Shown: one piece after another, positions 1,710-54,798 of the stretch
Layout: every line of letters starts with the position of its first letter
Numbering within the stretch: the stretch's first letter is position 1
Assembly (NCBI GenBank): GCA_051294905.1
Contig: CM119371.1
Location: forward strand, 31,436,001-31,500,000
Origin: Botryllus schlosseri
Taxonomy: Eukaryota
Length of the DNA: 64,000 nt
Reading direction: 5' to 3'
Made by a program: the position numbers and the translations under genes
The notes under the pieces: model-generated
The model's database searches: none
What the model was told of the DNA's origin: nothing
The model's input: only the letters and a program-made list of their open reading frames with translations

Positions 1710-1855
1710 CTTTACAAGATGCGTGCACCTTCACTGGCGTTCCTTCGGGCAACATACAAACGCGCGTACGATCATATGGATCCGTCTTGCGACAGAAGCT
1801 AACACTGGAGTTGTACTCGATACTGCTGTTAAAATATTGCTCGTCCGAACCGTCA
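1710..1855 (-). CDS. Gene 2 exon B9
   Basis: 146 nt, DGSDEQYFNSSIEYNSSVSFCRKTDPYDRTRVCMLPEGTPVKVHASCK; phase-1 donor, so the gene continues left of the window. Confidence 0.88.
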
Positions 1856-4800
1856 CTGAACAAGAATTGCACTTTCCGCATGGCACATGTCCGATTTACA
1901 TAGAATGACAGATATGTCTATATTAACAAATTAAAAAAGGTATTCTAAAAAAGGGTAACAATTTACGTACGGACATTGAGGGTACGAGTCACAGAAATAC
2001 CGATTTTGAAGGCATATCGTTCCGTCCAGACATGGAAATTCATCACCTCGACAAGTAGACCCTGAGAACATGAAGGGGAGATGGATCAACATCTCTTTTA
2101 TGGCTGAGATTGTTATAACAGATTGTTATAACAAAACGTAACTTCGACAAAAACACCTATTTCCCCCATCTCACGTTTTTATATTGCTGTAGCCCAGTCG
2201 TTTTTACCATGTCTCTAGCGCTAACAAGAAAAGGTTTGGAAAATTCTAATATATGAAAAAGGTTCACAGATCAGAAGGCATACACACCGAATAAGAACGT
2301 GAAACTCATATTGACACCATCCCTATAGTATATTCGATTTCATATACTATAATAAATAGGTATATCTGCTGTTGTGACCCAAAACAACACTCGTACGTAC
2401 AGTAGGGTTGTTCAAAATTATTATTTTTTTCAAATGTTCCGTGGCAATTTGATAAAATTGTAGGATTGGTTTGAAAAACGTTTCGGCTCAGTTTCAATTA
2501 CTGAATGTGAAGCTCATAGTTGGAATTAAGCCAAACTTGGTGTGCAACGTATTTTAAACCAACCTAACAATTCTATGAAAAAGCCGTGGAAATTTAAAAA
2601 CAAAAACGGTAATCTTTCAACAACCTGACTTACATGCCTAGTAAAGTTGAAAACTGGGTGCAGTGTTCACAGCATGAAAAAATAATCAAATTCAGCGTGA
2701 ACATACATCATCTAAATCACATTCTCAGTTGATTTACTATATAGTCGCACAAACCAATAAAACTGGGCCCAATGCAACTCCACCGTATCGCCAATCATAG
2801 ACGGGGTATGTACAATTTGTACATTGGTCTCGAACCCGATAGATATGAGTCCGTACCCGGCCTTGATTTGATCCCGAGAACAGTACAGAGAACGGCAATT
2901 AGTTGAGTGGTCGTCGGGTGCGATTCAATGTCGAACTATTCCTAATAGTCAAATCGAATTGACCGGAGTTCGACCTCTATCTAATCTTCTTCAGTACAAC
3001 CATATAACAATTTATAACGTATGGCTACGTTATAAATTGATATTCTACCACACTTGAAGCGAACATTTCTGAAAAGGGGCTCTGGACGAAAAACGGTAAA
3101 GACCGCTTTGTTTTGTTCGTTTGTTTTGTGGTATTCATGGTGCTTGTCGACTACTATGGTCATTTACACCAGGCCGATATTCTTCATTTTGATTCCGTAA
3201 CTGCCGACTTGCAGCACGGCCCACTTCGAGGCTTTTTGTAAGCCACAGCTTACGCGGACGAGGTGGCGAGAAGGAACTTAGTTAAACCTCCGACATTTAG
3301 GTATATGAATTCTGAAGTCGACCTCGGTCGGACTCAAACCCGCAATCCATTGGTGTTGCAGCCGCCGATTATACCACTGCGATATCTCGCCACAAGATCC
3401 AATGGTGTCGCCAACAGCGATGTATCTTGTCTATTTACAAGCTCCCAACTTCGGTCTGCGACTATTATCTTCGACTGTCTCTAACTATTTATATAGGCTA
3501 CTTCAGAGTACTTATTTGCTAATGATTTCCGCGTCTACTTAAAGTTGTATTGTTTTTGTAATATCTCCCAGTAGTCGCTGGTTTTATTATCCGACTCGGC
3601 CAAAATACACGAAGTACAAAGTTAATTACGAGATAGCTCTGTACCTTGTACTGATTTACTTCGACATCAAAATGATGGCTTGGATCATCTCTGTTTGCAG
3701 ATAAGTCTATTCATAAGTAGGTATATCCTAGGGGTGTATTGGAGGCTCGGTCTTGGCGTACCGCCATTAGGGGTGGTGATACACACTTTTCCATGAGCAT
3801 GGCAACCGATGTCCTAATTGATAATAATAAAAGAAGCATGCAGTAGGAAACCTTACCTGCACATATCGTGTTTACATGCGGGATGTGACTCAATGGCAGC
3901 ACACAGACGACATGTGACTTATATCTTGTCCCGACTACGATAACATGTTGTTCCCGACTTCGACAGAAAGTGGTTTCATCGCCATAATTTTCTGAGCTGT
4001 TCCTCAGTGGAGGCTCGTCGGATCCATCCCTATAAGAATTCGCGCCCACCATCAATGCTCATTTATAAGAATAATGTAATATGTAACACCCTCATATAAT
4101 ATGACGGATAACTGTGTGATTGCATAGCAATACAAAATGAAAATGCGTTCACAGTTTGCACAGTGATAATTATGTTTTATAAAATGCTGTACGTACAGGC
4201 AATCTGCGCGTCTATTGCAATACACACGTCCTGCAACGCACTGGGATCCATCAGAGCATGGGAATTGGTCGCGTGAACATGATGAACCTAGAATACATAA
4301 ATGACGCATGTATCAGTTACATATTGGAGGCAATTTAATTCTAAAACACATCAACTATATATCAATCGATGCATTTCGAGGCACAATTGCATCGCGTTCG
4401 ATGTGGGTCGTGCCAAAAGGACACTCAATGGATTCATACACATCAGTTTACGCCCACAGCGCGATGCTTACGATTACGCCGTAACTTATTAAAATAGAAG
4501 AGATCACGCCCCACTCCGGAGAGGATGCTGCATGTTGTTAAAATTGGTGATCGGATATAGCCTTTTTCACCTGCTCTAAAGATTCTTAAAATAGTTGACG
4601 GTTACAATTCTCTGCCGGCCAGGAGAACATATGCGGCCACTGATTGTAAATAATAATCCGGTTTGTATGTCAGTATGAGACGTGAGCGATAGTAGAGTGT
4701 CATTACGACTGAGTCCCGTCGTTTTGGGATCGAATAACCACCGTTGAGTAATAAGTCATTTCGAGTCACCGCAAATTTTGACTCGAGTGACTTCATGTAA

Positions 4801-7800: not shown

Positions 7801-10800
7801 ACTCTTTTTTTTTTCAACTCTTATTTATTCTTAGATGCCGCTACTGATGGACTCGACCATATCGAGAACCTAAATAACAATTGAATGCAACAAATGAAGA
7901 ATTGGTATTGACGACGGGTTCATTGTCAGTGACTCTCAGATGTTCGGAACGATTTTCTCATTGGTAGACTTGATGCGTTCAGAAATTTTTATTGAAAAAA
8001 GTTGTCTTCGATTCACGAAGCCTTCCATATTTATCATAAGTCGAGACCTAGCCAAGACCAATAATTTTAGAATCGTGACTCGAGTTTAATCAGGTCACTG
8101 AAAAAATGACTCGAGTTAAGTCTTGACTCGAGTAATTCCAAGAAAGCTGTCAGTTCGATCACGGTTGTGTAGCTATATACATCGATATACTTGAAAAAGC
8201 TTCTCATTGATGCAAAAGTTGTTACCATCACAAAGTATTTCGTGTTGCGACACAAGTGTCGACGGTAAAACGCAAAGAAAGGATTCCCCTCGCCCTCGAC
8301 AAAACGTAGTGTCGCGATCATACGATACGTTGGATCTCTTCAGCGGTGGCTCGTCGGATCCATCTCTTAACATTTAGATACAGTGAATGTAAAGGGAGAA
8401 GACTCTTCCGTTCAATACACAATCTATACTTACATGCAATCTGGTTTGCCATCACAGAAAGACGATATTGGAATGCACTTCGCGCCATCAAAGCAGGAAA
8501 ACTCATCTTCTTTGCACGATACACCTGTTAACATAAATGCACCAAAACCATATCATCATATACTATAGTACAGTGCTGGTTCTTAACCTTTTTTCCTCCA
8601 GCGCCCCCTTTCAAAAATTATCATGCTCTAGCGCCCCCCACCCCATATTGTAAGGACTGTAATAAAGACAATGGGTAAGAGGGAGGGCCGTAACAGCACT
8701 TCGTCAGTCCCCCTAAAATAACGATTTTATTGGGTACCCGTAGGGCGATAATCCAAACTTCTTGGGGCTTCGCCCCCAAGAACCCCTTCGCGTGATTTCG
8801 ATTGTCAGCAAAGTTTGTGTGACCTGGTCGCCCTAGGCACCAAAAATTTCTGTAATGCATGAATGAATAGCTGGTAATAGCATGTATAAGTCGCTCTCAA
8901 CATTTTATTCTCTCAGCCTACGTAATCCGATTTACCAGTAGCGATGAGTGAGCTGTTGTCTTGGAAAATGAAGACCAGATAACTATTAATTAAACATATT
9001 CGGGCGTGCTCGTTGGTACAAATTATTTCATTGCATGTTGTTATTTTGTTCCCTCTTGTCCGCTATAAAGTCAAAAGATATTGAGAGGCATAAACGTATT
9101 AAAGTAAAGTAAGCACACGGTTCAAAATTGGTATTTCTTCACTGGCAAATAATTTATCTCTGAGGGATGTTATTTATCCTGTGGGGTGCTGATTGTTACG
9201 ACGTGATAATTCGGCACGAGCGATTTAAGCACCTATGGACTGGACAATTAGACTTATATACAGGGGTCTATAAATGGTACTTAAGTACAATTTAGCAAAA
9301 ATAGCTTATTTTATACTCAACCAGAATTTTAAATTATACTAAATTATACTTTTATGAAAAATGGCTCTTTCCTGGCATAGGAGGGTACCATACTGAGACT
9401 TTTATGTGAAAACAAGCTCGTGTTTTGCGTTATTCCACCTCCCGGTGTTTCAAGTTTAATGATCTAACCAAAAATCACACAAGTTTCTACAGCTCTTGAA
9501 ACTGTTTTGCATGACGGCAGCCTTCGAGCGAGAAATCGGTCAGGCTCTCCCGGTAGTCATTCTTTTCAATTCCGATGGCGAAAAAATCCGCCTCCACTGG
9601 TGCCGTCGTTGGAAACACGGTCGAGAGCGTTCCGCAGAAGTCCTTTAGGGTGAGCAGGTTCATACCCTCGAGGACACCCCAAGCGTCCCTGAAGCTGCTG
9701 TCAGGGTCCTCCTCCTCTAACGTAATGCGGAAATTGTCATGGTCTCTGTAAAAGTCCCGCAGTTGAGCGTGCTCCGTCTCGACATCCTCGAGTTTTTCTT
9801 CGGCCCACCCAGCTGCTCGAAGCCGTCCTGACTGTTCGCGAACCAAGTCAGAGACAGCTGAACGACGGAACTTAACCAGTTCCTTTCGGAGCGTCGGTGG
9901 TATCTCGTTGTTTTTGATGTCCGCGTTGCTTGCCAGGAGATCACAGACGCCATGAAGTAGAGTGCAAACCAGCAGGCTGACTCCCTTTGAACAGTTTTCC
10001 TTGTAGCCGCCAAGATTTCATCAAGTTTTGCCTACAAAAAAGTCCTAAAGTCGAGGATGAATTCCTGAACATTTGTCATGGAAACAGAAACTGTTCAACT
10101 CTGACGTATTCTAATTCACCCTGGAAGCCATCCTCATCACAAAGCTCTGTAGTTACTGAACACAAGTCCTTCAGGTTGTCACACAACTTCATCGGCTTGT
10201 CGTGCTGCTCGGTGACCAGAGTTTTTTTTGCCTTGCAGGGACTTGACCACTTTCAGGACCTCTCCGGCGATTACAAGGACAGGGTGTTTGGTGACAATTT
10301 TGAGCTAGTTAAAAAAATGGGGGGGGGATTCTCGATTTTTCACGAAAATGAGAGATTTTAAATGGAATTTTAACCTACTTATTGCTTGAAATCATGCAAG
10401 ATGATTATATTCCATGAAAGAGCCGGTCTCATACTTTGTAATTCTGCCATAAAAAAGTATGAAACATTTTGACGATCTGGGTGGACCTTCCCCCCTTAAG
10501 AACTGATTCAACCAAGCAACCTATACTGCCGTTATATACACTGCAACAGTATATTCCGGTCTTGTCCAGTTCAGCAGGGATCGTCAGCCTTGCCACGTTA
10601 CAACCTTTAGTTGAGATTATTCACTCACTCACTAGAGTTTAGATTATAGCGAGCGAGAAAGATGAAATTTGGAAGCCTATATTATTTGAGCTGCGATAGA
10701 TCACAAAACAGAAAAAATGAACAAAGGAAGAGGAAAATGAGCTGAGCGTGGAATGAAATGAAGCGGAAATCAATCCCGCCGTGCGAGTAAAGCCACACAC

Positions 10801-13800: not shown

Positions 13801-16800
13801 AACTATTGGTGACTAAGCCTATATATCTCACCGTCGCAAAGTTGTCCCGATTGCGGCTCACGACTCGAAGGTAACAAGCAAACAAATCGGCCTTTTCCGG
13901 AACTCCTGGTCCCGCGACAAAAAGTATCATAGCGACTGTACGATGAATTGAAGTTCCTCAACGGTGGCTCGTCCGACCCATCACTTTACATTAGAAAATC
14001 ATAGGGTAATTGAGATTGGTAAGAATTCAGCTGTTCATCATTAGGCACTAGCGCAGTTATTGCTGAACTGTGTGCCGCCACAGATTCTCCGGCGTGCCAG
14101 GACATTTTTGGCAATTGTTGAAAATAATTGTTGAATATTTTATTGAATCTACTCACAAATATTAAATCCTTCCACAAATCATGGACATACTGCATGGAGT
14201 TTCAAACGCACTGCAACAATGTTTTCCAGAATCTTTTGTTAACACCCTTGGGTATAGGTAGGCCTAATCCATTTAAAAGCAATGGATTACGCAATCTTTT
14301 TGCAGGAGAAGAACAGCTCATTGATTTACGAAAGGACCCGCTTTTAAACAAAATTGAATGAGTTTTTACTGTCTACTTTCAAATCCTATACCGTGATCGG
14401 TGCAAAGGAGAGCTAATTCTATAGTCGTTGCAACTTCACAGCTATGTGAACGGGGCCGTAACTGCCATAGCACTATATGCTAATATGAAAGGGTCCAAGC
14501 ACGAAATGGGGCCAAAATCATTTCGCAAATTAATAAAAAAAATAACATTTTTGACAGACAGCATAATCCTAGAATTCTTGACTGTTATAGGGGTACAACC
14601 CCTTCCAGGAAATTCAAATAAATATAAAAAATTACCAAGAATTGACAGTAAAGACACAATAACCGTACTCGGAAATTTAAGAACCAATATAGTAATATCA
14701 GGTTCTTCTCGAGGCAGCTGGAATGCTTTATTCTGCACAATCGGCTGGTTAGGGACAATATGGGACCGTCATTTTGGCTCAGGAATAATATTAACCACGT
14801 GGCGTGAACAATTGAACATGGCGATGAACAATTACGTGCCAAAAATATCATTGGAATCATCACCTCCATCATCTCTACCTGGTGATACGACTCGTTCGTG
14901 AGTCAAGTAACACCTCCTTTCGTTCGTTATGGAAGGAGTGTGTGCGTGTTTGTGAATCACATGTATGAAGCATAGTGATTGAATTACTCGTAGAAGAAAG
15001 GTTGAACACCCTATGGTTCTCAAGCCCATTAACACGCGATAATAACTTATTTGAAGCAGCAGAGTGTCGCGGGCGTTTTAGAATTTTTCTAGTGTGTGAC
15101 AAGCTGAAAAAGCTTGAAAACCACTGCACTAGGGGTTTGTGCAAGTCCCTAACACGTTCTGGTTCGTGTGGAAACTATTAAGTTACGCCACGTCAGATCA
15201 ATCGCTTTTCCCTTTCATTTCTAAGCTTTGCTTGTACATACCAGGTATAGTTGAAGGATTAGTGATTCATGAGAGTATCATATGATTAGTGCCGTCACTC
15301 ATGGCAATGTGACTCTAGTGACATGTTCTATCATGATCTTGAAACACGTTGTTGGAAACATTTTAATAGAGCTGGGGTCATATTTCGGTGCATAAGACTC
15401 ATTCATTTAAACGCAGCATTGTTGGGCTGCTAAAATAATTCTTGAAGTCCAAGAAAAATTCTGCACCACTGAACCCGAATCATTCACAGCTGCTTCAGGG
15501 AACACATCTAACGCGGGAAGATATGCTCGTTATCTCGCAGCATCTAGCTGCTAGCCAGGCTCGTGGTAGTAAAGGTGGAGTGAGACTCAATTCACATTTT
15601 AAAACCGTATGGGCGCAATCTTTAAAGTAAAAAGAAAAACGAAAATCACACTAATAGTCTGCAATGTTTATGTTCGATTTCCTTTCCTGATGCGGCCTCA
15701 TGGCAGTGAGTGATGGGTAAAATAACTTTGGAGGATCTTGGTCAAGTTGTTGACGTTACTATAGCCTCGTTCTTAGTGGGGCACAAGGATTTATCAACTG
15801 GGGCTCATGAACCCCTTGGGAGTCAGCGGACTAGGTCTAAGGGGTCCCTGACAGGCCAGTCACGCAACTGCAACTATAAACTTTTATTCTCCTTTAAAAC
15901 GTTTGCTCTTACTTCTGACTTGCGTCCTAATTTGATCTTATTTAATTTTCCATCGAATGGATTTTCATGTAATATACTATATCGCAATATGAGGCCATGA
16001 CAAAATTGATAAGCTATTTAATCACCAGCTTTTCCAGATTGCAAGATGAAGGTATCCTAGCAATTACAAAAGAGATTTTAGCGTACTGCGCTAAGACAGA
16101 CGTTAAGAATCGCTGGTGTAGAACATGCCAAGATTCGCTTGCGAACGCTAACTTCCGGATTGTCAAGTATCGCATACCAAACAAGGATATAAACTGAGCG
16201 TTCGTATTATTCTTGTTAGACACTTCGCATTATTCATTTCCTATTATGACAATTGTCGTCACAAAGAAGTTACTGTATCTTTACCACTAAGACGAGAGCA
16301 TTTTTTTAGCTTTTGAGGGATAATTACGCTGCAGATACCCGAGTAAATATATTACGTGAAAGCAAAGCTGCCTTCTGAGGAAATTATTACTACAATACCT
16401 GCTTACCTGCAATCTCGATTTCCATCGCAAAACATCCAGTTTGGGATACATGTCGAACCATCCGAACACGTGAACTCGTCAGTTTTGCATGACGAACCTT
16501 GATCGAATTTGATACATGTTGAGGGAGAGTTCCTTAACCTTGGTTAAATTTACTTTATAATTGATAGGGTACTATTTTTAATTTACAGCAATAGAATAAA
16601 CCAATTCGACCATAAGTAGCTCTTATGACAGAACATAAAGCAAGCATAGAAGTTGTCTTGCAAAAACTCTTTCATATTGTCCCACGCTATATTCCACATC
16701 AAAGAATTGATTTGGCGGAAAACACCACGCCATGGACTACGAGAATCTAGCATAGGAGTGTCATGGACAGAGTATTCGCACAAACTTTTTCGGTCAAATT

Positions 16801-34800: not shown

Positions 34801-37800
34801 TGGGCTTTACTTGACTCTTATGAAAATTAAATGTTGATACTCCGTGAAAACAGCCCCGAAATTCCTCAGGCTATCTTCCTAATTGGAGGACTAAATTACT
34901 TCTAATTGACAAGCTGGAAATAGCGAAAAGTAAGTAAGTAGATCACAAAATATTGCAGAGTAGAAGTAGAAGTAGCAAAAATCAAATCTACTTTAGTAAG
35001 TAACAGAAGTAGAAGAAAACTACTGAGTACTTCGAAAAAGTAGAAGTACTTCGTTACTGACCACCTCTGCATATGATCCACGCCTCAGAGCTGAATCGCC
35101 TGTATAAGCGGTAACGATGTTGCGAGACCTGGTTCGTGTGAGCATCATAACAATAGGTTGGTTATGAAGACGAACTTTAACACGTAGCCTACCTCTGACA
35201 ACACCGTTTCGTCATGTGTATGCGTGTACTGGAAAATGATTGGGGAATAAGTATTTTCCTAAACGCATTGGTATAATATTTACATTGTGCCGTTGTGCCG
35301 AAAATATTATGGTGGTAGAATCACTTTATCCAAAAGTGTAGATAGTACTAGCCAATGAGCTCGTCAACTGTTCAGACTACTTTCATGCACGAACAAGAGT
35401 ACCCCAACGTAACTTTTGAGTATATTTAATTTTATTGATAGATGCTGCATTCTGAAGCCCGTTGTCGAAATTAAAAGGAATCCAGATTGTTTGTTTCGAA
35501 GATTCGCTATTTTATTTGAATTTTTCGATTGGAGTACTATAGGAAAGCGCTTTTTGGCTTTCTTTCCAGCATCTGTCGGCATGGTAAAATATAATTGGTT
35601 TATTAGTAATCAATAATCGAGATAAGTTTGGTGCCATTAGTAAGATCAATCACACCGTTATAATTGGAATGTATCTTTTGAAATTTTAGAATACCTCGAT
35701 CGTAAAGCTTAAAGGTCAACTATATGACCAAAACAACTTCGGCAGATTCTGCTGTATTTTTCCCGCTGATTTCAATAACAGGTGTCTTAACTGCTAAAAT
35801 TAAGTATTTTCTGAGATATCGAACTGCAAAAGTCGCATAATGCCACCACCGGCAAAAGCACTAGTAAAATCGCTGAACCGTCTAATGCAGGACGGGTTTA
35901 GGTGCTGCTGCTGTAGTTTAGCCAATGGAGCAGGTTAATGTCAACATCTGCAGAGGATATTGGTATCAGCTGATTGCGTTGCACGGTGTAGGTAAATCTC
36001 ATTGTGACACCCGTGAGGAATTATCATGTAGAGGTAAGTCCTTGGATGATATATACGATTTGAGCGTCCTCGGACGACGAGAATACCCTCATGTAGAAAG
36101 TATTGGGCCTACATTTTCAAAACAATATCCGAAAATATTTAGGTTCATTTCGATATGACTATACTATTCAATTGTATATTGAAGCTATGTACCTCCAAGA
36201 AGCTGTTTAATACAATGGTATGCAAGGCATGTTATGTTTGCCAGTAATCAAAGCTTGGAGACTGATGCACATTAGGGCTCTTCAAAAATGACATTTTTTC
36301 TCAGATCGTACTGGCTACTTGATAAAATTGTTAGGTTACCTAATTTAAGCCTACACACAAAATTTGGTTCAATTCCAGCCAGTAACCGCTTTGCTACAGG
36401 AGAAGAAACTTTCTATTTATTATATAAAAATGAATAATAAAAAAATAAAAAATTTTCTGTTCACCCCATGAAAGTGTTAGGCTGTCAATAGAAACGATTC
36501 TCACAAAATTTGGTTCAATTCCAACCAGTGGAAGCGGAGTTATTGCCGTCGAAAAATTTGGATTTCAATGAAATAGTATTTACGGTGAGCACAACTATAA
36601 TAAATAAACAAAGAATCGGTCTAAATGACAGCAACCAATGATGACCATGACGGTCGTGTCATAACCAGGCCCATTTTGTTTACCAGAAGAACGGAAGATA
36701 TTGACATTTGATTATGAAAGGCTGTTGATCTCATGTATGTAAATAAGGTGTTTTCACTCATAATGTTAGATTTGTACTACTTATCTTCATTTTTGGTTGA
36801 AGTTGTTTGATCTAAAAAATCTGTATTTTATCGAACTCTGCACTTATGAAGAATTCCGGCAGTTCCATCACGCATTATGGCAGAAATAGTTTAAATTTGC
36901 TTTCCTACATTTTCGGGTCAAAAGTGTCTGTCCTTACTAAGTAGCTTGCCAAGAATGGAGAAAGAATGTTAAACAGAAGCAATTGTTGGCTGGCAACACC
37001 AAAGCTGTGCGTACACTACCGGTGCGTACAATGTTGTCGACTATATCATAATTTTTCATCATGTGCTTCCTAATATAAGAACCAATGCCCACGCAGTCTT
37101 GATTCAGTTAGGACAGTGGTTCCCAACCTTTTTTCATTAACGTACCATTTCGATATTTTATGCAGAGCTCGCATACCAAGTTACGCGCACATCAGTAGGC
37201 CTACTCTCACCGAAACACAGGCTGTTCTGATATCGTTCGAGACTTGGTTCTAGTACGCAAATCCATCTTATTAGCAATTCTTGAAAGTGATTGAGAGATG
37301 CGTGTCCTCTTCCGCGGCAAAACTTGGTATTGGGATCATAACTGATGTTGCTGTATCTCAACGGCGGCTCGTCGGATTTGTCTCTAAATGAAAATGATGC
37401 ATTCAATCGACGTTGTCTGGATTACCTGCAGTAATTTGCAAAGAGAAATTACCAAGATCCTAATGCTTGAACCTACAGCAATACAAAAAACTCGAAAAGA
37501 TTTAGTCGCTTGACTGCACTGTAGCCTGGTGGTTCCCAACGTTTTCGACTATACGCCTGCTTATCAAGCTCGACACATATTTCGCTCTCCAATATTTACG
37601 TATTCCAAAGAGGACACATTATGTCACATATATACGAGGAACTTATTCACGTAACTCCGATCGCTGGTGCATTGACTACTTTCCATTACTTGACCTTTTT
37701 ATAGTCAACTTTTTCGTCATATGCAGAATAAACCGTCTTCACGCGCATTTTATGACCATGGTAATTAAATATATCTCGTCGGAAGTTCTAATATCTATGC

Positions 37801-40800: not shown

Positions 40801-43800
40801 GTAACCAAGTCACAAGGCTCCGAGTCACAAGTCAATCTCAGTTTTATAGTTTTGACTCGAGTCAAGTCGAGTCATTTTCAATTCACCACCGAGTCAAGTC
40901 CGAGTCCAAGTCACCGAGCAGAGGTTCGAGTCCGAGTCATGGTATTATGACTCGAGTCGAGTCCAAGTCATGATGTTGACTTCCCAGTTTACAGTTAAAG
41001 GCTTGTTAAATCTACTTTTTATGACTCTGTTTGGTGATATCGAATGGTTCACATTTATAATATACTAATTTTCGTCATTTTCAGCAGTTTGTGGACGTGT
41101 TTTCAAGTACCAGTAACAATAGACGAAATCCCAATAGTGTGATTACTGTACTATTCCTCGAAATTACAATGAAACGTCGGTCTTGGCCGTCTGAGTCTCT
41201 AGTCATATGACTTGGTTCGAGTCATGCACAATGACTCGAGTCCAAGTCGAGTCAATACACAAATTGACTCGAGTCGAGTCGAGTCATTTCCGTATTTTGA
41301 GAAAATGACTCGAGTCAAGTCGAGTCATCTGAAAAACGTGACTCGAGTCCGACTCGAGTCGAGTCATGACTCGAGTCATTACAACCCTGCTGGCAACGGT
41401 AATTGCGCATGTGTCTCCGTGAATATGTAGGCTGTCATGGATATAATTTTGAACAAATGAGTCTATTCCCCACCAGAAGCCATTGAATTCCCCACCGTTT
41501 GGGAACCACTGCTCTAGAGGGTGACATCGCTTGCATTCACAACAATGACACAGGACATGGAAAAATAGTGACGATATTACGAGGAAACGCCTACCGGCAA
41601 TGGGCTTCTCCGTCGCAAAACAAGGCGTTCATCACACACCCAGATCCATCGAAACAAGCAAAGCTGTCTGTAGGACAATGGGGACCTGGAACGTAAGTCA
41701 CAATGACTTGAGTCTACTCCTATGCTGGTTTTCACGATTTGATCGTTCTATTGCTAACGCCGAACATAGGTATAGGACGTTGTATATTTTGATATTATGT
41801 TTTCGCGGCATTGATATACAGTTTACATTATACCAGGTCACATGATATATGCATACACACACACACACACATACACGATGTGTGCATATGCACACCCTCC
41901 ATGCCATCCTTGTGTTACTGCCAGATTTAGTAATCAGGTATACTGTCTGATCCGGCCGGGGATCGAACCCACGACCCACCTATCAAGACGTCGGACTCTC
42001 TGCCCTTACCCTATCTTGTGAATCTATCGCCTGGGAACTGTGTGGACCAGAGTTGGATCAATTACAATATTTTAATTCAATTACAATTACAATTACTTCC
42101 TTGCATGTTTCAATTACATTACAATTACAATTACTCAATGCTAAAAATATCAAATTACAATTACAATTACTGTTAAACATGTATTTAATTACAATTATAA
42201 TTACAATTACAATTACTTTTAAACAGGTGATTGATTCAGTAAAGAGGTGTGCTTTGAAAACCGTAGCGACGTAATTAGCAACAATCTCAAGCTATTCATG
42301 TTTCATTCCTGATATGTAGAATACCCTTTAAAAAAAAATCGAACATATTCGAACTATTCCTAATCATGAGTATTGAAAACTACATGCACAGAAAATTGTT
42401 TCAAGTGACTGTTAAGAACCAAAGGTTTGAGCGACTAACAGCGAATAGGCTACGACAGTCAATGAAATGTAATCAAACGATTAGGCTACTCAGAGCTGAG
42501 TGAGGATAATGAAATGTAATTGGTAAGGCGTCACCAATAAGGATGATACCGATAAGGTGCGTGAAATGAAAATGAATGCAAAAGGAAAGAATCTCCTGAT
42601 AACTAAGAATTACAATATTTTGGTTCGCATTTATATTTTCACTTGCTCGGAAACTGTTAGATTGCATATGATGAACATTAGGGTGCGAAAAGCTTCTGGC
42701 CCCAGTAAACTTGGCCAATATTGGAGGTAAGATTGGGATAACATCTCTGCAAAAGCGTGATCAAGTTTGATGAAGCCTTAGTTGAAAACTTGAATTTATT
42801 TTGGCTTTTGTTGCGACAAGCCTCGGTACTGGTCAGAGATTTAAAAAAAAACTTTGACCGTGGTGTAGGAAATGGTTCAGCACAGGTTTCAGAAGAGTTT
42901 ATTGGCTGTTCAACCATTTTTTAAATATTAAGATTTAGTTTAGCTCACTGGTTCTCTAACTTTTTTAGACACGCCCCCCTTTATGACAGTGAATATTTCG
43001 TGCCTCTTATCGTCATAGCACACAATGAAACCAAAAAGTTAGCAATCCTTACGTATATTTTCATGGTATGGAAGGTTATGACTGTTGATGAGAGAATTTT
43101 GCAACACGAAATTCAGACTATAGACCGAACAACAGCCATAAAACGGATGTGAATCGGGCCAAGCGCGGAAAAGATTTCAGTTCACCGGAGCGTCGCGCCC
43201 CGTTCAGATGCTTTCACGCCGCCAAGGGGGCACGCCCCTAGTTTGCGAGCCACTGGTTTAGCCTACATTGTTATTCACAAAGTTTTTTGTTGCTACTGAA
43301 GTATGGGAAACAGTTTAGCGTGACTGAATTATCTATAGCTATAACGCAGCAGGCATAAAACAGGCATAAAACATAAATAGGCTAATTATTACATGTGGTG
43401 CCTGTTTACCAAGGCCTTAAGGCACCTCGTCGTCATCCTGGCTCGTACCGGATTTTCACTGGTGCGACGAATAAATGATTGATTAAATGATTATTTTATG
43501 TTGTGATTGTCAGGTTTCCATGAAAATGTAATTGAGATTGTAATTGAGCAAAATTTTGATCAAATTACAATTACAATTACAATTACACGAAATAGAAATA
43601 CTTCAATTACAATTACAATTACATGAAAAAATGTAATTAATGACATTCAGCTCAATTACAAATTACAATTGATCCAACTCTGGTGTGGACTGTGGAGTCG
43701 AAGACAATTTGTAGTCATGGTATGATGTTATAGTGGCGTAAACTTGAGATTGAACGACAGCAAAAATCTTTATCTCATACTTTTACAAAATCCTTCTTTA

Positions 43801-46800
43801 TCTTGTATAAACTGAGTTGTGACTTCGCAAAATCGATTGTCTTTGCGGCATATGATGTCATCTGTGTCGTTTGAAACGCTGCTGTCGTGATATAGCTCGT
43901 CCGAACCGTCTCTGAATCACAGAAAAGAAATAGAAAAAATACTGATACGCCACTCTCGTACATTAATATGACGTAACCAGAATTGTATTGGCGTTGTTTA
44001 ATAGTTATCATGAATCCATATGGATACATTTAAAAAGAGTATTCGGTTGTTGCTACGGCGTAAGACTTTTGTGAATGACAAAGATATTTTTGCCCATTTT
44101 TCGCATTCAGGACCACTGCTGCGTAAGCAGAAAGAACCGCATTTTATATATCAAGGGCATGGCATCGTTGCTTTAATCAAATCGATAGAGACAGAAAGTA
44201 CTTTTGTTTCTCCCGTATGTGGTGCTGCCACAGTATATCAAGGGTCTGCGATTCGTGTTATGATTTGGTTGAAGTACGGTGCATGCCCTTCCTGCCTCAA
44301 TCCTGTTCATGCTTGGAAACGGCAGTGTTTTGATCGCGAGTGGCTGTGTTCTGTGTTCTGTGTTCTGGTTTCGGGTACGGTATCATTATTGAGCTATGGA
44401 GTATTCTTGTGACTCAAGTGGTGACATATCGAATATCAATCGAGACGATGAAAAAAACTTTATCACGACTATGCTTATAGAAAGTCAGTTGGAAATTTTA
44501 AATTCAGCGTACTTGATCAATTCACACATATCGGTGGAGCCAAAAAGGCTTCGCCCGACTTTGATCACGTGACTGGTTGCACATATAGCAACCCGATCGA
44601 TTGGTTAACAAGTTACTCTGTTTTTGCGTCTGTGATTCAGGTAAAGTTATTATTCAGAAACCTAATCCCGGTTTTACGGTTGCAAACGTATCAAAATCTC
44701 GCGACGAAAGTCACTTGAGACTTGACTAAGTTACATGTGTTCTCTAATAGCTACGCATCGCATTACTTCCGGTGCAAACTGTGGATAGGTTTACACGGGT
44801 TATAATGACTCGATTAAAGATTTTCTGAGAGTAAATTTGAGAACTTTACCACAAGCACAAGCTTGTCAGCCAGTTGATATTTGCTGTGAGCAATCACTCA
44901 CTTGGTGAAGTCGTGCAAATTAGACTATTGGACAATATACGCACTGACAGTTCTTTATCCCGTCACAAAAAGAAGACTTCGGCACGCACTGCGATCCGTC
45001 CGCACATGGAAATTCGTTATGTATACACGTCGAACCTGGATAGATATACACAACATTGATGAAAGTCCCACCTGCACTAGATTTTACGCAGTTGCATTAA
45101 ATGCAAGAACGAAATGGATGCAGTATATCGGCAAGGCAGCGTAAACATTTTTCGAACTATTCATTTGTTCGAACGTTTGTGGGTAATTCGATCACACGAG
45201 CACGTGATGTTTTTATATATATGCGTGGCAAGAAAATGAGCCGTGCTATAAGTCGAAATCACAGGAATGTTAACACGTACTCAGCGTGATGTGGAAAGAC
45301 GATATATATGTCACAAAATCATAAATAACAAACAACAACATGCCAACGGGCTCTGGTTATAGCTCATGGGAATTCGCGCATGCAAATACAAGTCACAGAG
45401 CATATTGGCATAGATTGATTCAGGTCTCTTCATCAATTTTTCAAAATCTCCCCGATTTACATTTCTCTCATTCTAATACCAAACCTTGTCAAATGATTCG
45501 TACAGATGGTGAGCGCCCGTACAAACGTACATTAGACCAGGACTCTTCAACCGGGTGTATTGTACACCATGGGGTGTACCAAAATTTTAAAACGGTGTAC
45601 CACTCAGATGGGGTGTACTGGGGTGTAGCAGACGTGCTTTCAAAGGGACCAATGACTAGCTATAACCACAATAAATAGGTCAGTTTCTGCTTTTTAGAAC
45701 ATGTTGACCGGGTTTGGAATATCATACAATGTTCATATCCGCTGTTCGCAGCTTGTAAACTACGTTCCTTTTGTATTGTCACGTAAGCGAATGCTTCTCA
45801 TCATATAAACGCTGGTATTGGACTTATTGGATCCTTTTGGAATGGAACAGGTTGAAGTTGACACGTGTTCATCTTGCGAAATCTGTCTATATACTCTATA
45901 TTGAATCTTGGGGAAACCGCTGCGATAGCTCAGACATTTTGAATTGATGAGTTCTGCGAGATAGTTATAAATAACGGAGTTTACATAATTGCAGAGGGAT
46001 CCATGAGGTCGAGTTTGAAAGCCATTGAGCTCGATGCGGTACGGTAACGTAGAGCCCTGAATAATAGTAAGCATTTCAAATACGTTGCAGCCTTGCTCAT
46101 CCTTATTTCAACAGGCCAGGGGTGGCCAATCTGTAGACGTAAGGTTGCGTGCAGTCGTTGAACAATAATTATGCGTCCCTTCACAAGTAACTAAAATAGA
46201 ATGTGTTGGCGTCTGTCAATATGCAACTTGAATTAACGAATTGGTTCCCAAATCTTTGAAGGGTTTTAATTAAATTCGTAAATTTTATTCACGCTTGGCG
46301 TGATTCAGGGTGACTTTGATTTAACCTTTTTCCTTCTAGAGTGTTAACTGAGCCCCACCGTACAAATGCGAGCTGCAGAGGAAAGTGATGCACCCCATAA
46401 CGAAATACCAAGTCGAAATCGTGTGCGTCTCACGAATGAAAATTTTTGTCGTATGTTTGCGCGATTCCAATATATATTTCGACTATACCAACAATCCTGA
46501 TTGGAGTTCTAAAAATAAAGACATGCAACAAAGTGATTACTAAAACCGGACGATGCATCATCAATAATTTTGAGCCCAAAATTTTCGAAGATACCCCCTC
46601 CACCATCTCCAATGGTTATTTCCATCAAGGGGACGAAGAAAGGATAAATATTTTACAGTAATATATGAAACAACCCATTATCGACGAAACAAATTTTCCT
46701 GTAGCTATGCGCGACTAAAAAGAGTTTCCAGATAACTTTTCCAATAGCATTTACACTCGCGATTTTGGTGCATGTATCGTAAGCATGCAGGGGTGTTCTG

Positions 46801-48270
46801 CTTCTACAGTTAAAAACCTTTATACGCAAGGTATAACTCAAGAAATCAGTGATGGCACAGAACACTACAAGGGTTCTCCGCGGTGCGAAGCTCCCACTAG
46901 CCAATTTAACATGAGTATATGACGTCCAGATTGCCCATGAAGACTTTCCGCGGGAATGCGGAATGAAGTATGTAATGGAAATACGGCGGTAAATAGCAAA
47001 TAGGTTTAACACCCCTGGATTACGCTTGCCATACCGAATCAATGTGGTATGTGGTCTGGGGTGTAGGCTACGAGTCTCGAGTAAACACTGAAGGGGTGTA
47101 CCACGGCAAAAAAGGTTGAAGAGCACTGCATTAGACTGAACTTCAGTATACGATAGCTACTAACCTACATCTTCAGTAGGCCTACATCAAGATATCGTAT
47201 ATCTCACTCAAGCAATAGTGAACATATGATCAGACTCACCATCACAAAGCTCGTCCTCTTGTGCACGCAGCTGAGATGGCAATATGCAGATTCTTGGAGT
47301 GAATGAATCCTTCCTTCTGCGGCATACAGTCGTATTACCGCTATAGTTGGCACTGACAGTCCAATAAGGTTCATCTGATCCATCGCTGTTGAGAAAAATC
47401 ATTTCCATTTTTTCACCACCAAGTGGATCTTATAACATTGTTCAGGGATGTGCAACTCGCGGCCCGCGATCACAAAACTCGTCAAAGTTAATATGTGTGC
47501 ACGCGCCTCACGCTTTTCCTTTAGTTAATCACGATCCTCAGCGCGCCTTTAAGGAACAAGACCATATAATGACCCGGTAAAGTACGACTGAAAAGGCTCT
47601 TACGTAATTGCATGGAAAACTTTCAAAAAGGACAGCCGAAGGATCAAAATCGATCACCGAGGATCAAGGCAGGCGCACTTAGTCGTTTCGTAATCCTGTA
47701 GGCTACATAGTGTGTATCGCCTAGTCTTAAAACGTAAATATTATATAACAGGTCATTTTTGTATTTTTAGGTGTATTGAGATGTCGTACTTCATTGACAT
47801 GTGTCATCGTCATCGTTGGATCGTGGACCTCGCTAATACAGGAATATATATGTGCGGCCCGTGATGTCGCTAGCGTATTTATATCAGAATCACTTGTCAA
47901 ACAAGGAACACAGTGAACACCCATGGTGTAGTTGAATGTCGTGGTAACACTATTCGAAAGTTATTTCCTCACGAATATTGCAATTTGAATGGACACCGCA
48001 TTTGGCAACGCTCACCTGCAATCATTCGAACCATCGCAATATTTCTGCATCGGAATGCACCTTGTCTCGTCCTTGCATTCAAATAAGTTGTCCGGACACG
48101 TCAAACCTGTATCGAAGGTATTGTAATGCTCATCATGATAATAATAAACAAGATTCAATGCAAGTCCAACCTTCACAGCAAGTGATTAATACCATGACTG
48201 CAGTTCCAATGTAAACATGAAACATCCTCCATTTTGTAAGTGACCTTTGGATATTCTGTGCACGTGCCAT
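1710..48270 (-). CDS. Gene 2 (spliced, 3'-incomplete): secreted or membrane protein with nine tandem variant LDLa modules; possibly the N-terminal part of a second LDLa-GPCR
   Basis: Nineteen GT-AG exons join in one open frame (2287 nt, about 762 aa): 48171-48270, 48016-48106, 47240-47385, 44945-45035, 43781-43911, 41595-41685, 37211-37383, 29702-29792, 27496-27641, 25962-26052, 16814-16974, 16407-16497, 13832-13983, 8434-8524, 8226-8365, 4197-4287, 3857-4029, 1971-2061, 1710-1855. Repeated motif C-x4-F-x-C-x-DG-x2-C-x6-CDG-x3-C-x-DGSDE. No stop codon is reached inside the window. Confidence 0.88.
1971..2061 (-). CDS. Gene 2 exon A9
   Basis: 91 nt, GSTCRGDEFPCLDGTICLQNRYFCDSYPQCP. Confidence 0.9.
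3170..3385 (-). mobile_element. tRNA-derived SINE remnant
   Basis: Minus strand tcgcagtggtataatcggcggctgcaacacc...gcgGGTTTGAGTCCgacc (A-box-like and B-box-like). Confidence 0.45.
3857..4029 (-). CDS. Gene 2 exon B8
   Basis: 173 nt, DGSDEPPLRNSSENYGDETTFCRSREQHVIVVGTRYKSHVVCVLPLSHIPHVNTICAG. Confidence 0.9.
4197..4287 (-). CDS. Gene 2 exon A8
   Basis: 91 nt, GSSCSRDQFPCSDGSQCVAGRVYCNRRADCL. Confidence 0.9.
4963..5582. mobile_element. Foldback MITE (hAT-like), about 280-bp inverted arms
   Basis: Termini TAGGGCTGTTCAAAAA / TTTTTGAACAGCCCTA; perfect 8-bp TSD ATGTGCAT; related single arms at ~36273-36545 and ~2403-2600. Confidence 0.92.
5641..6984. mobile_element. Degenerate hAT (Buster/SPIN-like) element or MITE nest
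   Basis: TIRs CAGGGGTGGGCAAACT / AAGTTGCCCGCCCCTG; plus-strand remnant LLVLSGSTYICEKTFSTTK (~6591-6647) resembles the hAT C-terminal GSTYxCExxFS motif. Confidence 0.65.
8226..8365 (-). CDS. Gene 2 exon B7
   Basis: 140 nt, DGSDEPPLKRSNVSYDRDTTFCRGRGESFLCVLPSTLVSQHEILCDG. Confidence 0.9.
8434..8524 (-). CDS. Gene 2 exon A7
   Basis: 91 nt, GVSCKEDEFSCFDGAKCIPISSFCDGKPDCI. Confidence 0.9.
9261..11069 (-). mobile_element. hAT-like transposon with GC-rich transposase remnant
   Basis: Perfect TSD CTTATATA; CAGG/CCTG ends; ORF 9487-9846 LKDFCGTLSTVFPTTAPVEADFFAIGIEKNDYRESLTDFSLEG resembles the hAT C-terminal P-x-T-x-x-x-E-x-x-F motif. Confidence 0.8.
11253..12228 (+). mobile_element. Non-autonomous hAT family 'TAGGGATG' (GTTCAC/GTGAAC-rich), copy 1
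   Basis: TIR TAGGGATGTTGTGAAC / GTTCACACCATCCCTA; perfect TSD ATAATTAT. Confidence 0.9.
13832..13983 (-). CDS. Gene 2 exon B6
   Basis: 152 nt, DGSDEPPLRNFNSSYSRYDTFCRGTRSSGKGRFVCLLPSSREPQSGQLCDG. Confidence 0.9.
16407..16497 (-). CDS. Gene 2 exon A6
   Basis: 91 nt, GSSCKTDEFTCSDGSTCIPNWMFCDGNRDCS. Confidence 0.9.
16814..16974 (-). CDS. Gene 2 exon B5
   Basis: 161 nt, DGSDEPPLRNSSYDYAPNATFCRRRADYYTTAQVRSICVLPPNVMPLQDDLCDG. Confidence 0.9.
17598..20918 (+). mobile_element. 'TAGGGATG' family copy 2, interrupted by nested insertions (~18210-20636)
   Basis: Homology to 11253-12228 over 17598-18208 and 20637-20918. Confidence 0.82.
21034..22930. mobile_element. hAT-type MITE nest
   Basis: TIRs CAGTGGTTCTCAACC / GGTTGAGAACCCCTG; TSD GCCGGAAC/ACCTGAAC; contains GACTCGAGTC-family and CAGGACCGTAAC-family pieces. 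Confidence 0.7.
21682..21705. repeat. (TA)n microsatellite
   Basis: Direct reading. Confidence 0.9.
24394..25832. mobile_element. Non-autonomous hAT element
   Basis: TIR TAGGGTTATGAC / GTCATAACCCTA; perfect TSD ATGGCAAC; inserted into the terminal repeat of an older element. Confidence 0.85.
25962..26052 (-). CDS. Gene 2 exon A5
   Basis: 91 nt, DPTCLKREYPCSDGSACIPRQNFCDGKNDCR. Confidence 0.9.
27496..27641 (-). CDS. Gene 2 exon B4
   Basis: 146 nt, DGSDELYRNHSIARGNNLTACNGRAVFIDLPRNVCMVTPEAAEILRCR. Confidence 0.9.
27717..28680 (+). mobile_element. 'TAGGGATG' family copy 3
   Basis: Full-length homology to copy 1; both TIRs present. Confidence 0.88.
29702..29792 (-). CDS. Gene 2 exon A4
   Basis: 91 nt, GSTCSYGEFSCSDGSQCLPNSMFCDGIVQCN. 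Confidence 0.9.
30931..31112. mobile_element. Short TGCGCA-rich MITE
   Basis: TIR CAGTGTTTCCTC / GAGGAAACAATG; perfect TSD CTGCTAAG; relatives at 18884-19063 and ~20560-20636. Confidence 0.85.
31546..32554 (+). mobile_element. hAT derivative with transposase C-terminal remnant
   Basis: TIR TAGGGCCATTT / AAATGGCCCTA; perfect TSD GTAATTGC; QTSASVERSFS motif in ORF 32171-32356; AAAGTCATA subterminal repeats. Confidence 0.88.
37211..37383 (-). CDS. Gene 2 exon B3
   Basis: 173 nt, DKSDEPPLRYSNISYDPNTKFCRGRGHASLNHFQELLIRWICVLEPSLERYQNSLCFG. Confidence 0.9.
38760..39351 (-). mobile_element. Penelope-like retroelement 3' fragment (GIY-YIG endonuclease remnant and 3' region)
   Basis: FKCHCDSGYVGRTSKRLQGRINQY...GKHLLDNPAYAKNYSDDGFRVL...LIKIH; inverted duplication 39263-39295 / 39319-39351; hammerhead motif downstream. 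Confidence 0.8.
38796..38839 (-). ncRNA. Minimal type I hammerhead ribozyme motif (Penelope-associated)
   Basis: Minus strand reads gctgacgatt-ACCC-CTGACGA-G-tatcagc-C-GAAA-ataa-TC-GGGT: intact core, ACCC/GGGT stem I, UC cleavage site, located downstream of a GIY-YIG remnant. Confidence 0.7.
39719..40493 (+). mobile_element. 'CAGGACCGTAAC' non-autonomous family
   Basis: TIR CAGGACCGTAA / TTACGGTCCTG; near TSD TTCCCCAC/CCCCCCAC; other copies at ~33123-34078, ~21124-22010, ~8683-12366 (interrupted), and in reverse at ~19616-20555 and ~510-830. Confidence 0.85.
40794..41389. mobile_element. MITE with GACTCGAGTC palindromic subterminal arrays
   Basis: TIR CAGGGTTGTAA / TTACAACCCTG; perfect TSD CTGGCAAC; related motifs at ~4780, 8070-8135, 21070 and 22465-22550. 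Confidence 0.9.
41595..41685 (-). CDS. Gene 2 exon A3
   Basis: 91 nt, PHCPTDSFACFDGSGCVMNALFCDGEAHCR. Confidence 0.9.
41850..42010 (-). mobile_element. tRNA-derived SINE remnant
   Basis: Minus strand ggtaagggcagagagtccgacgtcttgataggtgggtcgtgGGTTCGATCCCcggccgg (B-box-like) with a downstream (TG)n tail; no complete cloverleaf. Confidence 0.55.
42048..43682. mobile_element. hAT-type element with (AATTAC)n subterminal repeats
   Basis: TIR CAGAGTTGGATCAATT / AATTGATCCAACTCTG; perfect TSD GTGTGGAC; nested MITE 42946-43255 (TSD GTTTAGCT/GTTTAGCC); short relative at ~1187-1365. Confidence 0.9.
43781..43911 (-). CDS. Gene 2 exon B2
   Basis: 131 nt, DGSDELYHDSSVSNDTDDIICRKDNRFCEVTTQFIQDKEGFCK. Confidence 0.88.
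44945..45035 (-). CDS. Gene 2 exon A2
   Basis: 91 nt, GSTCIHNEFPCADGSQCVPKSSFCDGIKNCQ. Confidence 0.9.
45538..47128. mobile_element. hAT-type element
   Basis: TIR CAGGACTCTTCAACC / GGTTGAAGAGCACTG; perfect TSD CATTAGAC; internal ~46340-47070 is homologous to ~7000-7700. Confidence 0.85.
47240..47385 (-). CDS. Gene 2 exon B1
   Basis: 146 nt, DGSDEPYWTVSANYSGNTTVCRRRKDSFTPRICILPSQLRAQEDELCDG. Confidence 0.9.
48016..48106 (-). CDS. Gene 2 exon A1 (LDLa N-half)
   Basis: 91 nt, GLTCPDNLFECKDETRCIPMQKYCDGSNDCS; cag| and |gtgag. Confidence 0.9.
48171..48270 (-). CDS. Gene 2 first coding exon, signal-peptide-like
   Basis: ATG at 48270; MARAQNIQRSLTKWRMFHVYIGTAVMVLITCCEG (basic N-terminus, then hydrophobic core); phase-1 GT donor. 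Confidence 0.7.
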
Positions 48271-51408: not shown

Positions 51409-51596
51409 TCATCGGTCAGTCATTGCCACAGCCTCGGTCTCGCCCGGAGCTGGAGCCGGTAAAGGTCTTCTGATTCTCTTTATCTTGTTCCAAACGATTT
51501 CAGAAAGATTCGAATAGAGCAGCGGATTCAACGCACTATTTATGGGCACGACGAGCAAACCTGCCGGCAGATACACATCTTTCGGTATGTCAACTC
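51409..51596 (-). CDS. Gene 1 TM7 and C-terminal exon
   Basis: GVDIPKDVYLPAGLLVVPINSALNPLLYSNLSEIVWNKIKRIRRPLPAPAPGETEAVAMTDR*. Confidence 0.92.
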
Positions 51597-54500: not shown

Positions 54501-54762
54501 CGGGTTTACGTCAAGAATCATGTTATTTAATCGAATCCACTCAGTAGATCTGCAAATATATTCGTAGAACTTAGAAAAGGGTTATCCACATGTTCTACTA
54601 TGCGTACCCTTCTTGGGGCTTGGAAGTAGTTTGAATAAGGTTGAGCCACTGTTCCATATACTGAATATCTTGATACTTCAACACCTTGAACATTCGGTTT
54701 TCGTTGAACCTTTAATATACGAATATAGGCTATATGTGCATACAAGTTCAATACATTTGATT

Positions 54763-54798
<36 letters not shown>

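Follow-up and report, generated by a model that had tools for sequence, protein, structure and literature searches.

What kind of protein keeps a rigid frame of cysteines and lets a single loop within it change from one repeat to the next? The question is raised by a gene of the ascidian Botryllus schlosseri, located in a stretch of 64,000 nucleotides (NCBI GenBank assembly GCA_051294905.1, contig CM119371.1, positions 31,436,001 to 31,500,000 of the forward strand); this whole stretch is the window analysed here, and all positions below are counted from its first letter. An earlier account of this DNA (the sequence-only reading) had likened the loop to a complementarity-determining region (CDR) and proposed a recognition or allorecognition receptor. 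We find it rather probable that the gene encodes the front end of a receptor like the LDLRR-GPCRs (GPCR, G-protein-coupled receptor), made of nine old eight-cysteine copies, each combining an LDL-receptor class A (LDLa) repeat with the remnant of another, and with the loop as a tolerated hairpin tip. The feature is real, was correctly measured and probably sits in a receptor family that is known but still orphan; neither a CDR-like role nor one in allorecognition is supported.

The repeat gene lies on the minus strand, as do all exons given below, and runs from 48270 to 1710 as a signal exon followed by nine strictly alternating pairs of exons A and B. The first coding exon (48171..48270) has an ATG in frame with unit 1, encodes a putative signal-peptide-like N-terminus and ends in a phase-1 GT donor; it holds the most hydrophobic 15-residue stretch of the 762-residue frame (1.87, versus at most 1.22 beyond residue 40). 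All nine A exons measure 91 nucleotides and the nine B exons 131-173, with an AG acceptor and a GT donor at 18 of 18. Joined together, the 19 exons form a stop-free frame of 762 codons, and because they share this frame, the nine loops belong to a single polypeptide and are neither alleles nor parts of separate genes. Every A exon is of phase 1-2 and every B exon of phase 2-1, and the summed lengths are divisible by three in all nine pairs. Each A+B pair is thus a phase 1-1 cassette, which makes the units freely copyable. Judging from the exon phases, skipping of a B exon together with the next A exon would yield in-frame hybrid units; no such joint was seen, and the transcript contig described below fits consecutive splicing. 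The introns are long and repeat-rich. Local hidden Markov models (HMMs), built from eight of the nine units, recovered all nine A and all nine B exons and found no tenth unit across the six frames of the window. The donor of B9 is of phase 1, showing that the gene extends past the window's left end.

By its sequence, exon A is an LDLa repeat, an identity missed by the sequence-only reading, although the fixed cysteine framework that it described is real. LDLa (complement-type) repeats occur in LDLR, LRP1/2, CD320 and RXFP1, and their calcium cage follows the pattern D-x-x-x-D-C-x-D-x-S-D-E. The three A exons scanned against PF00057, A1 (48016..48106; E 1.7e-6), A6 (16407..16497; E 4.2e-7) and A7 (8434..8524; E 5.5e-7), scored 28.6-30.5 bits against a cut-off of 24.1. 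The other six, namely A2 (44945..45035), A3 (41595..41685), A4 (29702..29792), A5 (25962..26052), A8 (4197..4287) and A9 (1971..2061), were placed by exon scan and match the local A profile. Exon A carries cysteines C1-C5, and the acidic DxSDE end of the repeat is encoded in exon B. The cage residues are largely retained (DE in nine of nine units, the Asp after C4 in eight, the Asp before C5 in five), and the LDLa repeat of each unit is predicted to bind calcium. The canonical sixth cysteine, which directly follows the acidic motif, is missing in all nine; the next cysteine comes 15-16 residues past the DE. As read from these residues, the A half is a variant and not a canonical LDLa.

Exon B continues from the acidic end through a linker to three further cysteines (C6, C7 and C8), and the variable loop lies between C6 and C7. 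This loop has 11 residues in B1 (47240..47385; loop 47289-47321), 6 in B2 (43781..43911; 43830-43847), 19 in B3 (37211..37383; 37260-37316), 13 in B4 (27496..27641; 27539-27577), 15 in B5 (16814..16974; 16863-16907), 12 in B6 (13832..13983; 13881-13916), 8 in B7 (8226..8365; 8275-8298), 19 in B8 (3857..4029; 3906-3962) and 11 in B9 (1710..1855; 1759-1791). These lengths reproduce those originally reported, as do the 91 nucleotides of each A exon, the distance of 15-16 residues from DE to C6 (15 in five units, 16 in four) and the 13 residues between C7 and C8 in eight of nine units, the sole exception being unit 4 with 11. The loops had also been said to begin usually with basic residues, and Arg indeed comes first in eight of nine. 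All 13 N-glycosylation sequons of the 762-residue frame fall in the DE-to-C6 linkers and none in the loops. Loop 8 contains an 8-nucleotide direct repeat with copies 23 nucleotides apart, possibly the trace of a local duplication (shuffles, 4.5%).

An HMM search of 1.84 billion proteins returned 15 hits, 11 of which carry the module; the remaining four (P0010, P0012, P0014 and P0015) are unrelated repetitive proteins and were dropped before all counts. The 11 carriers comprise two Styela clava proteins, P0002 (XP_077966781.1, 1122 residues, 13 units) and P0008 (XP_039271181.1), both named 'uncharacterized', the multi-unit proteins P0003 and P0011, and seven single-exon fragments. With the B alignment, a word-index protein search gave one match among longer proteins (P0001) and none among proteins of near length, and a metagenome scan gave two loci, both lacking the eight-cysteine module. 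Compared at the level of sequence, the eight-cysteine unit is common to Ciona, Styela and Botryllus schlosseri. We found no description of it in the literature searched or in the accessible part of the text of the Ciona receptor survey (PMC2396169), domain drawings excepted.

The key to the B half lies in the last array unit of P0003, which continues as a complete LDLa. There, the distance from C3 to C5 is 7+1+5 = 13 residues, equal to the fixed C7-C8 spacing of our units. As far as the Ciona material could be compared by eye, the model ci0100145358 has an intact terminal LDLa with the same 13-residue C3-C5 arrangement, and four other Ciona models show the 13-residue form, followed in three by an acidic Asp motif and a cysteine. 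This match in spacing makes it likely that the B half is what remains of another LDLa, with C2, C3 and C5 retained and C1, C4 and C6 lost, in which case the loop would be the C2-C3 hairpin turn of that LDLa. In canonical LDLa repeats, the disulfides are C1-C3, C2-C5 and C4-C6. Transferred to the unit, this pairing would give C1-C3, C2-C5 and C6-C8 and leave over C4 and C7, which would then pair across the two halves. None of the four B exons scanned had a PF00057 hit, and among the titles returned by a literature search there was nothing on the length of the LDLa hairpin.

In AlphaFold models of a unit and of B8, strands flank the loop and a helix follows it; the 19-residue loop 8 is depicted as an extended beta-hairpin. 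The sequence-only reading had named burial of the loops in structure models as something that would count against it; in these models (predicted local distance difference test, pLDDT, 60-69) the loop is predicted to be exposed, as a protruding hairpin tip. Fold searches with the unit model had LDLa clusters as best rows, weakly (E 0.006 and worse), and neither model had a match at E 0.001 or better; in VIA-align, the B8 model had three rows at Z 2.0-2.1 and the unit model none at Z 2 or above. The ESM Atlas held no usable match for B5 and returned LDLa clusters at 0.88-0.89 for part of P0003, and the sequences of the PDB held no match for the B alignment. The blank fold searches indicate neither a new nor a different fold.

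Is the loop then the part of the unit that changes most? In length, clearly so: it takes at least six of the eight minimal length changes of the unit on 18% of its non-cysteine length (binomial P = 0.0008, a post hoc value that rises to about 0.003 when four segments are allowed for), and is a real indel hot spot. In sequence, it is not the most divergent part between units. The mean pairwise identity among the nine loops is 0.31 (shuffled, 0.28), and that of the fixed-length C7-C8 segment 0.22 (shuffled, 0.19). Synonymous sites are saturated between units (pS, the proportion of synonymous differences, 0.51-0.98), from which it follows that the nine units are old and that dN/dS is unreadable; at this saturation, pN/pS is 0.64 for the loop and 0.74 for C7-C8. 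Trees of the A and B halves were poorly supported and were not used.

A wider comparison covered 37 modules: the nine described here, the seven fragments, four of the 13 units of P0002, six of the seven of P0003, two of P0008 and nine of P0011. C7 and C8 are 13 residues apart in 33 of the 37, and loops range from 6 to 27 residues, the longest being that of P0009. The first loop residue is basic in 31 modules and the last hydrophobic in 32, and C7 is followed by Leu in 34 and by Pro in 29; within the loop, as aligned, only its ends are conserved. Loop length is quite stable in some relatives. In Styela clava, all 15 units have loops of 8-9 residues, and in P0011 the loop has 6 residues in eight of nine units, the last unit alone (residues 604-690) having 21. 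Young copies within Styela P0002 differ at 6/79 loop positions and at 60/471 elsewhere (LDLa 36/223, linker 7/135, C7-C8 17/113; P = 0.26, the pairs not being independent).

Other samples inform on transcription and on polymorphism. The alignment pieces examined were 24 of about 33,000, and the stretch covered ran from B5 through B9. Sample X7 was called RNA-type by the tool's guess, and X7 and X8 come from different studies. Contig 10 of X7 (825 nucleotides) sits on 3856-4028, the limits of B8, with no differences; its depth in the bins of A8, B8, A9 and B9 is 6.75-6.89 per exonic base, compared with 6.85 for the contig as a whole, and the bins of B5, A6, B6, A7 and B7 fit exon-only cover at a depth of 5-9. 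The repeat gene is transcribed and spliced, and the splicing of units 7-9 is shown. As 196 nucleotides of the contig remain past B9, further exons follow. Run X13, raw RNA of unstated tissue of which about 6% was sampled, had almost no depth on exon-only bins and is uninformative on the site of expression. The proposal of an allorecognition receptor finds no support here: B8, with its loop, has no differences in X7 or in X8 (piece 3608-4038). In X6, B9 (piece 1705-1881) has three other letters in 177 nucleotides and no gaps, and B7 (piece 8145-8383) has one other letter and two gaps, their places not being shown. These samples are few and possibly related, and contigs drop rare variants; the comparison of B7, B8 and B9 thus leans against high allelic polymorphism.

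The identity of the receptor is suggested by the neighbouring gene (51409..63953, minus strand), which begins beyond 64000 and ends 3.1 kb upstream of the start of the repeat gene. It consists of LDLa-like exons followed by a rhodopsin-class seven-transmembrane (7TM) region. Its last seven exons (57733 to 51409) form an open frame down to the stop (51409-51411) with seven hydrophobic stretches, and the 7TM exons are intact. The exon of the sixth transmembrane helix has RXFP1 as its best PDB match (7tmw, E 0.0017), the Pfam 7tm_1 matches are weak (E 0.007 and 0.014), and a word-index protein search with the exon of the fifth helix gave no match. The LDLa-like exons between 63953 and 59800 were partly modelled. 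Its architecture, as predicted from these exons, is that of the Ciona-type LDLRR-GPCRs, and two genes of this type on one strand suggest a tandem cluster. Moreover, one of the neighbour's LDLa-like exons (63696-63854) aligns with the part of P0003 that comes after its array (E 7e-11). P0003 runs from its array into the very segment that leads to the 7TM region in the neighbouring gene, so that by analogy the repeat gene is likely to be the front end of an LDLRR-GPCR that ends in a 7TM region beyond the window. Inspection of the 762 residues revealed no leucine-rich repeats. To our knowledge, LDLRR-GPCRs are orphan receptors, expanded in ascidians and without a known ligand. In the accessible part of their survey, the Ciona members were suggested to bind lipoproteins or large complexes, and blood and haemocytes are the source of most of their expressed sequence tags (ESTs; Kamesh et al. 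2008, PMC2396169).

How such a protein might work can be outlined from the receptor family and from LDLa biology. Avidity would allow the chain of acidic, calcium-pinned LDLa cages to hold a large extracellular (lipo)protein, and a 7TM region of the relaxin-receptor type would pass on the signal, as has been put forward for the Ciona receptors; the loops would contribute secondary contacts at most. The loop probably varies because its base is fixed by the cysteines; insertions and substitutions would thus be tolerated and not selected. Its ends would be structural (basic first, hydrophobic last) and its middle free to lengthen and to drift. As far as the sequences can tell, relaxed constraint on the loop is likelier than selection. 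If the loop is merely a tolerant hairpin tip, the array is a tidy case of repeat evolution; should it prove to be selected, invertebrates would have a recognition repertoire of a new type, built on a GPCR. Either way, it is the obvious site at which to probe the ligand specificity of LDLRR-GPCRs.

Several results weigh against this picture of a tolerated loop on a double-LDLa receptor. When the B modules were aligned with A-type LDLa repeats using hhalign, no match was obtained (probability 0.8%), and the LDLa origin of B is drawn solely from cysteine spacing and context. The confidence of the structure models is low (pLDDT 60 and 69), and they give no disulfide pairs. A 7TM region was found in none of the four long homologues. 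Finally, the loop stands at shuffle level when compared with the seven outside modules (best identity 0.28, shuffled 0.26), whereas its flanks stay above it (linker 0.58 versus 0.33, C7-C8 0.47 versus 0.32). In the pair of equal length formed by unit 3 and P0005, its closest outside module, 14 of 19 loop positions differ as against 9 of 29 flank positions (P = 0.007; identity 5/19 and 20/29). This fast divergence of the loop from its relatives fits positive selection and relaxed constraint equally.

It is these data that sustain the first alternative, in which the architecture is the same and the loop is a selected specificity site. Every unit and every paralogue would then display a different hairpin tip, its turnover driven by selection, and LDLa scaffolds in a family of blood-cell receptors would carry a germline-encoded set of binding loops. 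Such a repertoire predicts the fast loop turnover just described, and the concentration of indels in the loop (six of eight), its predicted protrusion from the models and the blood and haemocyte origin of most Ciona LDLRR-GPCR ESTs, as given in the part of PMC2396169 at hand, are all in its favour. Yet pN/pS is lower in the loop than in C7-C8 (pS being saturated), the young Styela duplicates show no acceleration in loops of 8-9 residues, eight of nine P0011 loops keep to 6 residues, and loop 8 is unchanged in two other samples. We regard this alternative as possible but doubtful. Its extension to a family of blood-cell GPCRs, in which a calcium-pinned double-LDLa scaffold with a free hairpin loop, multiplied in tandem and across that family, would serve as a selection-diversified, antibody-like germline repertoire wired to G-protein signalling, we hold to be unlikely. 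The sequence-only reading is partly supported. The loop is predicted to protrude, takes nearly all indels and outpaces its flanks relative to close relatives; on the other hand, the nine loops are germline-encoded in one old polypeptide, and those of Styela are neither variable in length nor fast. The protein probably belongs to a receptor family with Ciona ESTs mostly from blood and haemocytes (PMC2396169, as seen in part); the CDR and allorecognition readings are unsupported.

The array could also be part of an LDLa protein that is no GPCR but is secreted or spans the membrane once, such as a scavenger or matrix protein that arose from the front end of an LDLRR-GPCR, the loop being a neutral decoration. 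No 7TM region was seen for the repeat gene within the window, and Styela P0002 and P0008 end without a transmembrane region, P0011 ending in a short hydrophobic tail. The Styela models, however, end within a repeat and look truncated, the P0003 array runs into the family's post-array segment, the direct same-strand neighbour is an LDLRR-GPCR-type gene, and the Ciona models that carry the module are listed as GPCRs in the part of the survey available. A protein of this kind is therefore improbable in our judgement.

Lysines of RAP are known to occupy LDLa cages, and the basic loop start might likewise fold onto the acidic cage of the LDLa in its own or the following unit; it would then mimic a ligand from within the chain and hold the receptor shut until a ligand or a protease acts. 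Charges are in favour of this: the first loop residue is basic in 31/37 modules, and in the eight units tallied net charges are +1 to +4 for the loops and -2 to -6 for the LDLa halves. Structural support for the contact was not obtained, however, the conserved basic residue may do no more than stabilise the hairpin, the middle of several loops in Styela and P0003 is acidic, and an R-x-x-R site occurs in only one of nine units. We consider such self-inhibition very improbable. Furin-type processing as a general role was rejected on the same count of R-x-x-R sites.

What is scarcely credible is the strong form of the sequence-only reading, a CDR-like, highly polymorphic allorecognition or immune receptor: a fixed cysteine frame with a variable loop, in animals that have allorecognition, invites it, but the copies are old and lie in one polypeptide, B8 shows no differences in X7 and X8 and B9 no gap in X6, the matches to heptamer and nonamer signals (seven and one in 64 kb) flank no loop, and 'LDL' is absent from the main text, as far as available, of a paper on the Botryllus allorecognition receptors (PMC12582321). 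Somatic recombination or mutation of the CDR type was rejected as well, since each loop is germline-encoded inside a single exon and the X7 contig matches B8 exactly.

The window also contains several repetitive elements. An element of about 630 nucleotides with long inverted arms (4960-5590), akin to 36265-36544 and very abundant in sequencing runs, is likely a miniature inverted-repeat transposable element. Two interspersed families reside in introns, one at 11246-12235, 17591-18214, 27735-28816 and 52824-53771, the other at 8684-9259, 19616-21997, 33118-34074 and 39714-40493; in both, several copies are 70-83% identical. An open frame at 38984-39322 (minus strand) has a weak GIY-YIG match (E 0.034) and is possibly a fragment of a Penelope-like retroelement, and the frames 9487-10017 and 55029-55463 resemble retroelement remnants by eye, with no Pfam hit.

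How does the array compare with known systems? According to the part of PMC12582321 at hand, the receptors known to serve allorecognition in Botryllus have Ig and Sushi domains and carry tyrosine motifs, and about 40 residues distinguish fuhc-sec alleles from one another. The Fester family, FcoR and fuhc-sec resemble our gene in being germline-encoded ascidian surface proteins with diversified extracellular parts, and differ in their Ig and Sushi domains and tyrosine motifs as well as in their numerous alleles and copy-number haplotypes (PMC12582321, as seen in part). Here, a signal region and LDLa-type units make up all of the 762 residues; neither an Ig nor a Sushi domain was seen in them, nor signs of many alleles in the samples compared. 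With the LDLa of PF00057, the unit shares the C1-C5 spacing and the acidic DxSDE calcium motif, but it has no cysteine two residues past the DE and gains three extra cysteines 15-16 residues on. In the Styela proteins XP_077966781.1 and XP_039271181.1, our eight-cysteine unit also stands in tandem (13 and 2 complete copies), with the same linker of 15-16 residues and the same 11/13 spacing. Their loops have 8-9 residues throughout, in contrast to 6-19 here, and P0002 has grown by recent copying of a four-unit block, whereas the units of our gene are all old. The closest parallel in architecture is provided by the Ciona LDLRR-GPCRs (PMC2396169), which, in the part of the survey available, have N-terminal tandem LDLa repeats with no leucine-rich repeat seen and a relaxin-receptor-like 7TM region (present here in the neighbouring gene); a DE-linker-C-loop-C-x-L arrangement is apparent by eye in six of their models, four with the 13-residue spacing. 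In the Ciona models compared, the module occurs once, with a linker of 8 residues (in five of six models) and a loop of 8-12; in Botryllus schlosseri, the unit is repeated at least nine times, with linkers of 15-16 residues and loops of 6-19.

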